A stretch of DNA of 64,000 bases, taken from Chryseobacterium sp. (GTDB taxonomy: Bacteria; Bacteroidota; Bacteroidia; Flavobacteriales; Weeksellaceae). The DNA is taken from the NCBI RefSeq assembly GCF_022869225.1, contig NZ_JALIHL010000001.1:2285721-2349720 (forward strand), given 5' to 3'. A program made the translations under genes and the position numbers. How positions within the stretch are numbered: the first letter of the stretch is position 1; each line of letters starts with the position of its first letter. Shown piece by piece: positions 18,046 through 19,975 of the stretch. The notes below the pieces were generated by a model. It was not told where the DNA came from and did not search any database. It was given only the letters and a program-made list of their open reading frames with translations.

Positions 18046-19056
18046 TTAAGGATGTTCATTTCTTGCTCTGATGACCAGATTCACCAGATCTGAGCCGCCG
18101 CTTGCAAAATTATTACTTGGATTATGGGCACTTTGAGTGGCTACAGCATAAGGAGCGCCGGCCCAATATCCCCAGAAAGGACCACCGCTCTGTCCAGGCC
18201 ATATATCTGCCTTATGGCTCATGCTTTCATTATCATCGGCACTCCAGAAGTCGCCGTCCAGAGAGATCCCGGTTTGATAAGTGGGTCTTTGGGTTCCGGT
18301 AAGATCTCCCGGATACCCTGCGTGAGTCCAGTAAGCACCTCCATCCCACGAATCGGAATATGATTTTGAGCCTAGCCAGCCTGTGCTGTTTCCGATGGGT
18401 CTGTCTAATACAATCACTACATAATCGTATTGTATTTCCGTAGAGTCGATGGTAGGACCTGCTACTTTATACTTGTAATATGTGAGTGTACCCCAGGCTG
18501 TTCCGTAAGGAGCGCTTCCGTTATAATACATAGGAGTGAACTTCAGCCATCCCGTTGTATTATTAGGCTGCCAGTCTACAATATGGGAGCAGGTAAGAAG
18601 GTGTCTTGGTCCGATCATGACACCGCTTCCTGTGCCTAAAGAACTTTCCACTCTGCCCACACATCGCCATGGATAGGCAGTAGAATTATATACCTTTCTT
18701 TGATCGGGACTGAATATCGTTCTTGCATTTTCCGGAGTCAGAAAAGAGTCTCTGTCAATGAATTTGGGTTTACGGTCTTTTTTAGGTTCCAGTTTTGGGT
18801 TGTATTCAAAATCTGAATGGGCAGGATAAAAATGATCGGTTTCAAGAGATCGGTTCTCCGTTGTTTTTTCATCCATAGGCATTCCTATTGTTTTCATCCC
18901 TTTAGGAAAAGATCTTCCGTTAATGGTTTCCATGGCAGGAGCCTGGCTGGATAATTTTTCAATAGCTGCAGGTTTTTCAGTTGATTTTGCTTTAACAGTT
19001 CTAAGTCTTGAAACTTCTTCTGCTGTCATTGGGTTGTTGTTTTCGATGTTAGACAT
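18046..19056 (-). CDS. Trypsin-like (V8/glutamyl-endopeptidase-fold) serine protease zymogen, no signal peptide
   Basis: Triad motifs LLTCSHIV, YDYVVIVL, GQSGGP; YPWRCVG and HAGYPGD typical of the V8/Mpr group; about 112-aa hydrophilic propeptide. Confidence 0.88.
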   Translation of the reverse strand: MSNIENNNPMTAEEVSRLRTVKAKSTEKPAAIEKLSSQAPAMETINGRSFPKGMKTIGMPMDEKTTENRSLETDHFYPAHSDFEYNPKLEPKKDRKPKFIDRDSFLTPENARTIFSPDQRKVYNSTAYPWRCVGRVESSLGTGSGVMIGPRHLLTCSHIVDWQPNNTTGWLKFTPMYYNGSAPYGTAWGTLTYYKYKVAGPTIDSTEIQYDYVVIVLDRPIGNSTGWLGSKSYSDSWDGGAYWTHAGYPGDLTGTQRPTYQTGISLDGDFWSADDNESMSHKADIWPGQSGGPFWGYWAGAPYAVATQSAHNPSNNFASGGSDLVNLVIRARNEHP

Positions 19057-19129
19057 GATTATTAATTTTAATCTATTATATTCCTACTCTTTTAATGGCT
19101 TTTCGGATTCCGCCGGTATTAGGATGGGA

Positions 19130-19975
19130 TTAACTAAATATTTTTTGAGAAAATTCTGCGGTGATGCTTTCCGTCTGGTTGATCTGAGCAGCTCCCATAG
19201 CCGCTAATGCAATAGCGGTCTGCTTGTCAAGTGTTTTTCTGATGATATTGCCGTTGGTAGCGCGCAATATTTTACAGAAGTGATAAGTGAAATACCCTCG
19301 TATCTGCCCGCTGATACTTCCTTCCATAGATACCTGATTGTCTTTGGCTGCAGCCCATAAAGTATGATTCATTCCGGCAACAGGAATAAGAGCCTTAGTG
19401 AGGGCCGTTGTTTTTTTAGCATTTTTAGAAGATTCTATTTCACTGGCATAGGTCAGATAAAATTCATCCTCGAGCATTGGGGGAATAAAACGGGCGGTTT
19501 CATTAAGGAGGTCCGCTTCCAGTCCCAGGTCCATTTTTCTGGTTCCTGTTCCGGAATAACAGCAGTCGAAGATGACTTCCATATTGACTCCGGCTTTTAG
19601 CTTACTAAGAACCGCTTTAAAATCATCATCCCGAATGACACCGGCACTTGCGTAATCATGCGGACAAATGGCTTCGTCCAGACCGTCCAGTTCAAGATCT
19701 GACCCGATATTGGCCACTCTGGTTCCGTGTCCTGAATAATAAAAAACAAGAGAATCTCCATTTACACTTGTGCTGATCAGAGATTTCAGATAGTTCAGTA
19801 TATTGGCTCTTGTGGCATTTTGATTGGTCAGGATTTTAATCTTTGCCGGACTAAAACCACAGATCACCAATGTATTTGCCATATCTCTTGCGTCATTTAC
19901 ACAACCATTGAGGTCTGGTCCTCCGTATCCGATGGGTGCATAATCATTGATTCCTACGATAAGTGCTTTTTTCAT
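19130..19975 (-). CDS. Caspase-family (C14, metacaspase-like) protease
   Basis: Probable start MKKALIVGINDY at 19975; LNGCVNDA, catalytic His YYSGHG, DEAICPHD, IRDDDF, catalytic Cys FDCCYSG. Confidence 0.92.
   Translation of the reverse strand: MKKALIVGINDYAPIGYGGPDLNGCVNDARDMANTLVICGFSPAKIKILTNQNATRANILNYLKSLISTSVNGDSLVFYYSGHGTRVANIGSDLELDGLDEAICPHDYASAGVIRDDDFKAVLSKLKAGVNMEVIFDCCYSGTGTRKMDLGLEADLLNETARFIPPMLEDEFYLTYASEIESSKNAKKTTALTKALIPVAGMNHTLWAAAKDNQVSMEGSISGQIRGYFTYHFCKILRATNGNIIRKTLDKQTAIALAAMGAAQINQTESITAEFSQKIFS

Follow-up and report, generated by a model that had tools for sequence, protein, structure and literature searches.

A metacaspase and an adjacent serine protease of zymogen-like architecture form a conserved and apparently undescribed two-gene module in Chryseobacterium and other Bacteroidota

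A 64,000-nucleotide stretch of a Chryseobacterium sp. genome (contig NZ_JALIHL010000001.1, positions 2,285,721 to 2,349,720; hereafter the window) contains adjacent genes for a metacaspase (MC) and a trypsin-like serine protease (SP), which together constitute a genuine, conserved and apparently undescribed cytoplasmic two-protease module. No description of a metacaspase-SP pair was found in the literature, as an earlier reading of the window made from its letters alone (the sequence-only reading) had supposed. That reading had also proposed that MC activates its neighbor by cleavage after Arg-112 (R112) of SP. Such activation is plausible and ranks first among the mechanisms considered for the pair, with a rough probability of 45%; we infer both the cleavage and its direction from the architecture, conservation and phylogenetic distribution of the two proteins.

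SP is encoded on the minus strand at 18046-19056 (336 amino acids) and resembles V8 and Bacillus intermedius glutamyl endopeptidase (BIGEP) in fold. The caspase open reading frame (ORF) spans 19130-20062 on the same strand. Here, the Met codon at 19975 matches the start of homologs, which begin MKK or MAKKA, and this conserved start defines an MC of 281 amino acids (19130-19975). MC is the first gene, and a gap of 73 nt (19057-19129) separates it from SP. The ORF coordinates therefore agree with the two co-oriented protease genes 73 nt apart that had been described from the sequence, and the R112 codon lies at 18723-18721 as earlier placed. The claim that neither protein has a signal peptide also held when both N termini were scanned by the Kyte-Doolittle method. 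No hydrophobic segment was found in SP (maximum mean of 0.12 for 12-residue windows in the first 60 residues) or in MC (maximum of 1.39 over the same span, at an internal strand), and none was present in any homolog aligned or inspected. An intrinsic terminator at 20151-20177 on the minus strand (a T-run after a 12-bp stem that includes 7 GC pairs) closes the upstream two-component operon, and no terminator was found in the 73-nt MC-SP gap. Given this arrangement, MC-SP looks like its own two-gene transcription unit. A single metatranscriptome contig of 263 nt was recovered; it lies inside SP (260 nt covered) and is uninformative on co-transcription. The G+C content of the two protease genes is 0.43 (window positions 18001-20000), as against 0.30-0.36 in the flanks.

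MC and SP are strictly co-inherited. Both genes were present, and always adjacent, in the same 52 of 151 Chryseobacterium genomes; the other 99 had neither. A lipoprotein-7TM-kinase-LuxR regulator-MC-SP block (7TM, seven-transmembrane) is syntenic in ∼60 Chryseobacterium species. MC also lies directly upstream of SP in Flavobacterium aestivum, a Chitinophagaceae metagenome-assembled genome (MAG), Draconibacterium and Maribellus, and the two genes are adjacent in several metagenome lineages whose SP is only 55-58% identical. One locus, L119, has the opposite gene order: MC (49% identity) follows SP at a distance of 99 nt. In a cyanobacterial MAG (L080), a distant C14 protein (32% identity) is encoded 585 nt upstream of SP and was separately recruited. 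At that locus a Gln_deamidase_2 protein and the distant C14 precede SP (3210-5347), and the C14 frame is broken by masked bases, not by a stop codon. The pairwise distances of SP and MC correlate (Mantel r = 0.83), a value reached in 0 of 5000 permutations. An all-against-all comparison of flanking ORFs from 22 loci revealed no third conserved gene, MC and SP alone being common to the MC-SP loci. A conserved third component (sensor, effector or inhibitor) was rejected on these grounds; the sharing of Mrp and penicillin-binding protein (PBP) genes among Sphingobacteriales-type loci is housekeeping synteny. MC and SP are thus a genuine conserved unit, more than chance neighbors.

The family is rare, being found in 3 of 401 genomes of a phylum sample. 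The identity of SP across phyla is high (61-67% when Bacteroidota, Burkholderiales and a cyanobacterium are compared). Together with the G+C content of the pair, this points to horizontal transfer of a gene under tight constraint. When viral contigs were scanned with a profile, no relatives were returned, and a phage origin was rejected. In Chryseobacterium sp. E1 (L064/G495; genome estimated 75% complete), SP contains an in-frame TAA and matches residues 77-336 only, beside an intact MC, which reflects either a pseudogene or an assembly error.

By sequence criteria (fold core, catalytic dyad, acidic S1 residues and p10-like part), MC is a bona fide metacaspase homolog. It matched Pfam Peptidase_C14 (PF00656) at 1.2e-27, and the MC family profile matched Yca1 (4f6o), Candida Mca1 (7qp0), AtMC4, TbMCA2 and GSU0716 (3bij), with E-values of 1e-26 to 1e-32 for Yca1, MCA2 and AtMC4. 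The match to the 285-residue Geobacter protein GSU0716 extended over its whole length. The dyad consists of H83 (YYSGHG) and C139 (DCC, C138/C139), both invariant in homologs. The acidic S1 residues picked out in the sequence-only reading (CVNDA and RDDDF) were confirmed: D28 (GCVNDA) and D116/D117 (RDDDF) are invariant across 23 homologs, and the D28 segment aligns with the conserved GC(I)NDA of Yca1. An invariant acidic cluster (D93, E95, D97 and D100) aligns with the Yca1 loop DGDEEDGMDD, which we take to be a Ca2+ site. This alignment is suggestive only with regard to Ca2+ dependence of MC. The family profile reaches residue 241 of Candida Mca1 (7qp0), indicating a p10-like C-terminal part, the feature by which metacaspases are told from orthocaspases that lack p10, and this part contains the conserved block HxLWAAxKDNQVSxEG...RGYFTY. 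MC accordingly comprises a p20-like core and a p10-like part and lacks both a prodomain and a sensor domain. Its shallow alignment did not permit a sound AlphaFold2 (AF2) model of MC (predicted local distance difference test score (pLDDT) of 59, with a weak p10-like part), and the model was used only to note a low-confidence linker at residues ∼141-224, in which R146, R162 and P166 are invariant and E171 and F172 nearly so. Specificity for Arg/Lys is predicted for MC; orthocaspases are described as cleaving after basic residues (PMC6426788).

SP matched Pfam Trypsin_2 at 4.7e-07, above the gathering score. Its triad of H158 (TCSH), D211 (YDY) and S290 (GQSGG) is invariant in homologs, and the catalytic motifs earlier judged intact in the two proteins (SGHG/DCC; TCSH/DY/GQSGG) all correspond to invariant columns. 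The AF2 model of SP had a predicted template modeling score of 0.89. When this model was searched with Foldseek, the first-ranked match was 1p3c, the structure of BIGEP (TM-score of 0.78 on the target), with Esp and exfoliative toxins ranking next; a phmmer comparison of SP with 1p3c gave 1.3e-4. On the evidence of the model, SP has a V8/BIGEP-type chymotrypsin fold. Around the catalytic Ser, residues D284, P287-G292, Q308, S309 and S319-G321 are invariant. Ser/Thr190 and His213 have been named as essential for Glu specificity (PMC5508998), and in the alignment to 1p3c neither is kept: D-T of BIGEP corresponds to D284-I285 of SP, so that Ile/Val285 and the invariant Gln308 stand in their place. 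The database label "V8-like Glu-specific endopeptidase" was therefore rejected as a statement of specificity. A specificity for SP was likewise not read from its S1 residues, which show just that the Glu-specific residues are absent.

The N-terminal 112 residues of SP (18721-19056, minus strand) are conserved and are predicted to pack on the catalytic domain. In the AF2 model, most 10-residue blocks of this extension have pLDDT values of 86-95, and values below 50 occur solely at residues 1-6 and 108-110, the latter just before the putative activation junction R112-T113 (18718-18723, minus strand). The extension also contains an invariant P78 and, in closer homologs, the motif RKPKF(I)xR. As modeled, it is a conserved domain and not a disordered tail, and the loop at residues 108-110 would look like an activation loop that could be cleaved in trans. 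T113 is invariant in 53 SP homologs. In the 53-sequence profile, the Gly three residues past T113 aligns with Gly4 of mature 1p3c, and T113 therefore corresponds to Val1, residue 1 of mature BIGEP. The mature N-terminal motif x-I/V-x-x-x-D-x-R also aligns between SP and the V8/BIGEP-type enzymes. V8, BIGEP and Esp are made as precursors that are activated by other proteases, and the freed N-terminal amino group completes the S1 pocket in enzymes of this type (PMC5508998). SP thus looks like a zymogen. The 112-residue propeptide ending at R112 that had been proposed from the sequence is well supported as a boundary by homology, and cleavage there would fit the analogy with V8/BIGEP-type enzymes. 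Conservation of the junction was borne out in a modified form: P1 is Lys or Arg in every MC-linked SP and is followed by the invariant Thr, with Arg itself not conserved and Lys the commoner of the two.

Taken together, these features suggest how the operon may work. MC and SP would act as two cytoplasmic proteases of a self-contained two-gene operon, SP being made as a zymogen whose 112-residue N-terminal region wraps the V8/BIGEP-fold catalytic domain. Full SP activity should need the freed α-amino group of Thr113, as in V8 and B. intermedius glutamyl endopeptidase. The scissile Lys/Arg112-Thr113 bond is predicted to lie in an exposed flexible loop, and the neighboring MC would be its likeliest cutter in operon-bearing lineages. 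The proposed order runs from MC, predicted to be Arg/Lys-specific and Ca2+-dependent, to SP and from SP to cellular substrates. MC would be one of several interchangeable activators, with a subtilisin-like protease, a NAL1-like protease or an unlinked route serving elsewhere. Activation in trans is favored by two observations: MC occurs only with a basic P1, and P1 varies (K, R, E, Q and T) as against invariant surroundings of the catalytic Ser, which makes autoprocessing unlikely as a general route.

The two genes also share a leader. An Rfam scan of the 64-kb window returned exactly two above-threshold matches, both to the DUF805b motif (RF02914; gathering threshold of 35.6 bits) and both on the minus strand. 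One (19081-19116, 48.1 bits) lies between MC and SP, 24 nt before the SP start; the other (19996-20030, 42.9 bits) belongs to the leader of MC and ends 20 nt short of its start codon. Membership of this family consists in a hairpin with a AGAGUAGG tail in a 5' leader, and both copies exceed the gathering threshold. The MC leader is kept in 20 Chryseobacterium loci, and DUF805b leaders stand ahead of one or both genes in other Chryseobacterium, Chitinophagaceae, Draconibacterium and L115 loci, as well as ahead of the solitary SP of Sphingobacteriaceae. Genome-wide (G000, L169-L179), ∼10 DUF805b leaders scored above the cut-off, always 16-26 nt before a start codon. Among the other genes so led are some for small peptides in which Gly-Gly closes the N-terminal segment, reminiscent of double-glycine bacteriocin leaders. 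The rest encode a DUF6520 peptide, a phage-tail-collar protein and uncharacterized small proteins. Such a set suggests that accessory or competition genes form a regulon with a shared leader. A literature search for DUF805b found no text beyond the Rfam entry. In a Flavobacteriia-like group (L086, 5100-5134; L133, 1998-2032; L183, 4974-8808), the MC-SP gap is just 27-54 nt and co-directional genes of ∼117, 516 and 600 amino acids without a Pfam family follow the pair. In L086 a separate DUF805b leader precedes the 516-residue gene, and in L133 such a leader is found at the equivalent position downstream of SP.

The association of SP with other proteases was assessed in a survey of 184 loci, in which SP, P1 and nearby proteases were extracted from the first 168 and L180-L183 were read from called genes. 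The mature-domain tree of SP resolved two clades. In clade A, SP with Lys or Arg at P1 is accompanied by MC in Chryseobacterium, Flavobacterium, Chitinophagaceae, Prolixibacteraceae, four metagenome groups, L119 and L080. Other members of this clade combine a Lys with a cytoplasmic Peptidase_S8 in Nitrospira, a Gln with Peptidase_S8 in L120 and L123, a Lys with no neighboring protease in Sphingobacteriaceae, Sphaerotilaceae and others, and a Glu with no neighboring protease in Roseateles DAIF2. Clade B consists of SPs with Glu at P1 beside an S8 or NAL1_N/trypsin-like protease, and of ∼31 loci with Thr at P1 (NQAT-TIF) and no neighboring protease. The S8 partners (∼440-460 amino acids) have a long N-terminal extension; the NAL1_N/trypsin-like partners (∼312 amino acids) carry N-terminal extensions as well, and all are without a signal peptide. 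Partners of these two kinds are encoded at L081-L083, 5090-6403; L181, 5125-6516; L124, 2515-3903; L120, 3282-4598; L084, 5089-6030; and L182, 5252-6187. Partner proteases thus span three catalytic groups (C14, S8 and S1), and to judge from these gene neighborhoods their repeated replacement by other catalytic classes is a signature of functional coupling. A 215-residue ORF upstream of Burkholderiales SPs was rejected as a partner; it has no Pfam match and is a probable shadow ORF, its G+C content at third codon positions (0.60) being lower than that of SP (0.81) and of the opposite-strand ORF (0.75).

Several results of this survey weigh against activation by MC, or at least against its being general. 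MC was never seen with a non-basic P1 among the surveyed loci, and Lys or Arg occupies this position in all of at least eight MC-linked lineages. However, Lys/Arg is also the commonest state in clade A lineages without MC, and because it dominates the clade regardless of partner, the rule is not statistically discriminating. The Lys-junction SP of Nitrospira is paired with an S8 protease, the SP genes of Sphaerotilaceae are solitary, and S8 partners go with Lys, Gln and Glu at P1, which speaks against matching of partner to P1. Covariation of P1 and partner was accordingly rejected as proof of a cascade, Lys/Arg also occurring with S8 or with no partner. In three SP-bearing Sphingobacteriaceae genomes, no C14 homolog was found at E ≤ 1e-3. 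Their locus (Mrp, PBP-like transglycosylase, SP and a 512-amino acid gene) equals that of L115 minus MC, and by this synteny Sphingobacteriaceae appear to have lost MC alone. The three SPs are 64-69% identical, with a Lys junction and all invariant residues kept, and their omega values, both in the mature part (0.04-0.06) and in the N-terminal extension (0.16-0.29), indicate strong purifying selection. SP is therefore kept under selection without any C14 protein, so that another activation route exists and MC is not an obligate activator. In staphylococcal sspAB, the nearest operon to have been characterized, a V8 enzyme moreover activates a cysteine protease, in the opposite direction. Thus, of the claim that the caspase activates its neighbor at R112, the zymogen-like build and the Lys/Arg junction fit well, whereas an obligatory role does not stand.

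These same observations lend weight to the strongest alternative, in which MC and SP are regulated together and work side by side on the same or on complementary substrates, neither cutting the other directly, SP being matured by itself or by a housekeeping protease and MC being an accessory that can be lost or swapped. The persistence of SP under purifying selection without a C14 protein in Sphingobacteriaceae, its solitary state in Sphaerotilaceae and the three catalytic classes of partner with no consistent P1 match would all be expected of such partners, and the identical DUF805b leaders suggest co-regulation and not hierarchy. Nevertheless, V8/BIGEP-type architecture normally requires cleavage in trans (PMC5508998), the varied P1 beside invariant catalytic-Ser surroundings argues against universal autoprocessing, and the Lys/Arg junction fits metacaspase specificity in every MC-linked lineage. 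Parallel action is considered possible, if somewhat unlikely, and activation of SP by MC is preferred to it.

Transcriptional control of the pair was considered in the light of its neighbors. Upstream of MC, a conserved region on the minus strand (20049-20114) contains the direct repeats GTGTTTTTCCT (20114-20104) and GGTTTTCTCCT (20091-20081) and a Bacteroidota-type -7 box, GAATTTTG (20056-20049); its alignment indicates a probable promoter with a regulator site. The consensus of 21 aligned Chryseobacterium upstream regions is G.G.TTT.CCT ... TT..CCTCTGTT.T ... GAATTTTGTC. A similar GTTTTCACCC element lies at 22895-22939 (minus strand), upstream of the two-component operon; the short pattern by itself occurs in the window no less often than chance would predict (6 matches versus 3.9 expected). 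The MC-promoter repeats and this element are compatible with control by a LuxR-type regulator. Candidates, assigned by Pfam, are the LuxR-type response regulator at 20246-20890 and the HisKA_3 kinase at 20887-21669, both on the minus strand. In F. aestivum, a single-transmembrane HisKA_3 kinase (38% identity) and a LuxR-type regulator (45% identity) adjoin MC-SP in divergent orientation, and in Draconibacterium a GerE regulator is divergent from the pair. A HisKA_3/LuxR two-component system thus probably drives the MC-SP operon in Flavobacteriales, where expression would lie under this neighboring system and both cistrons would carry the same DUF805b leader.

On the other side of the operon, SP is followed directly by a disrupted serine recombinase (resolvase) at 17207-17889 on the minus strand. 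One ORF contains a tandem duplication of its N-terminal ∼70 residues, and a second ORF encodes its C-terminal part. L001, L030 and L033 have resolvase remnants at the same position. The downstream flank of the operon looks like an insertion hot spot bordering an Rhs toxin region.

The sequence-only reading had further linked the pair to abortive infection or programmed death, and a dedicated anti-phage module of this kind is the next alternative. This link, which is speculation, found no contextual support. With PADLOC-DB 2.0, MC-SP matched only generic models, namely "caspase" (3.8e-23) and, weakly, the protease domain of RT-Protease_XI (2.7e-4); no system-specific match with other components was obtained, no partner genes being conserved, and no defense system was matched. 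MC scored 54 bits against NCBIfam caspase_w_EACC1, as against a cut-off of 140. No gasdermin gene lies beside MC-SP, the loci sharing no third gene and the Pfam domains of their neighbors being unrelated. The patchy distribution (3 of 401 phylum-sample genomes, 52 of 151 in the genus), the high identity across phyla suggesting horizontal transfer and the generic caspase and protease matches would suit a defense module, and known immune modules do use protease-activated proenzymes (PMC12799240; 10.1101/2023.06.23.546230). In one Chitinophagaceae MAG (L060), a gene for a 1068-amino acid TPR-CHAT protein (1657-4863, minus strand) divergently adjoins MC-SP and adds a third caspase-fold protease to the locus, in this lineage alone. 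Against these points, neither MC nor SP has a sensor domain (STAND, SAVED, TPR or similar), no third gene is conserved across the loci and no match was found in viral contigs. The neighbors are mostly housekeeping genes (RimM/S16, Mrp and PBP), the chromosomal position is fixed across carrier Chryseobacterium genomes, and the apparent two-component control points to an environmental or envelope signal over phage sensing. Dedication to defense is therefore regarded as improbable.

A reversal of the order, with active SP processing MC in the long p20-p10 linker as SspA activates SspB in Staphylococcus, is quite improbable. Metacaspases generally autoprocess or require no processing, MC precedes SP in nearly all loci, and such an order leaves both the conserved basic junction residue of SP and SP's own activation unexplained. 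In its favor are the low-confidence MC linker with its conserved motifs (R146, R162, P166, E171 and F172), the N-terminal extensions that S8 and NAL1-like partners also have, and the known participation of V8-family enzymes in activation cascades, the staphylococcal cascade among them (PMC5508998). Finally, adjacency by mere chance of two genes of unrelated function is very unlikely given their perfect co-presence and co-absence in 151 genomes, their adjacency in at least three orders of Bacteroidota with one reversal of gene order, and the leader motif common to both.

The proposed activation of SP by MC has parallels in several groups of known systems. The first is the staphylococcal cascade from aureolysin to SspA (V8) to SspB, together with the V8/BIGEP-type enzymes generally (PMC5508998). 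SP belongs to the same fold family, with 1p3c as best match, and has the same long pro-region and aligned mature N terminus; the staphylococcal cysteine-protease gene lies in the same operon, as MC does with SP, and activation by an unrelated protease is a likeness that is proposed for SP. By contrast, V8/BIGEP-type enzymes are secreted with signal peptides, which MC and SP lack, and they have the Glu-specificity residues Ser/Thr190 and His213 where SP has Ile/Val285 and Gln308. The staphylococcal partner is a metalloprotease or staphopain, whereas that of SP is a metacaspase. The second group comprises the C14B metacaspases and orthocaspases (Yca1, Trypanosoma brucei MCA2, AtMC4/9, GSU0716 (3bij) and Microcystis MaOC1), with which MC shares the His-Cys dyad, the acidic S1 residues, the p10-like part and the acidic cluster aligned with the Yca1 loop; it differs from these named members in having no N-terminal prodomain, no extra domains and a candidate substrate encoded next door.

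The third group consists of immunity systems in which proteolysis gates an effector: trypsin-MBL nuclease pairs and caspase-nuclease (canu) loci, which contain protease-gated proenzymes (PMC12799240), the SAVED-CHAT to PCaspase cascade of type III-B CRISPR (10.1101/2023.06.23.546230) and gasdermin-protease operons (10.1101/2021.06.07.447441). MC-SP is similar in being an adjacent, co-evolving and wholly cytoplasmic pair of protease and proenzyme, and the swap of trypsin for caspase among the nuclease proenzymes (PMC12799240) resembles the C14, S8 or S1 partners of SP. In MC-SP, however, the gated protein would itself be a V8-family protease, a sensor, a nuclease and a gasdermin are all absent, and there is no link to a known defense system. 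A proteolytic cascade has also been proposed for multi-peptidase conflict systems that combine caspase-like and trypsin-like peptidases (Kaur, Burroughs, Iyer and Aravind 2020; PMC7159879). These are built on MoxR-vWA, STAND/GTPase, EAD adaptors and other effectors, all absent from MC-SP. The pair is thus a variation on the theme of a protease gating an adjacent proenzyme and on V8-type hetero-activation, distinct in being intracellular, in using a metacaspase and in having interchangeable partners.

Metacaspases are found widely in bacteria, where analogy is the main ground for linking them to cell death. We know of no bacterial metacaspase for which a physiological substrate has been defined. 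The MC-SP operon offers a concrete candidate, namely an adjacent zymogen with a site that matches metacaspase specificity, in a fold family switched by such cuts. The SP family also provides natural controls in the form of caspase-less SPs, pairings with subtilisin-like or NAL1-like proteases, and Lys/Arg, Glu, Gln and Thr junctions. In its broadest form, which is put forward tentatively and must be considered doubtful, the proposal is that SP and its relatives are cytoplasmic V8-fold "executioner" zymogens gated by interchangeable activators, in Bacteroidota by a metacaspase and in Nitrospira and Cytophagales by a subtilisin-like or NAL1-like protease. In Flavobacteriales they would be placed under a membrane two-component sensor and within a DUF805b regulon to which bacteriocin-like peptides also belong. 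Stress or competition would trigger them to bring about demolition of the proteome or cell death, and SP would be the first physiological substrate to be defined for a bacterial metacaspase. If true, this would amount to an intracellular protease cascade of modular build, comparable with caspase cascades. Confirmation of the activation step would place a protease-on-protease cascade inside bacterial cells outside CRISPR-linked systems, and would assign functions both to the DUF805b RNA motif and to a sensor-less HisKA_3/LuxR system.

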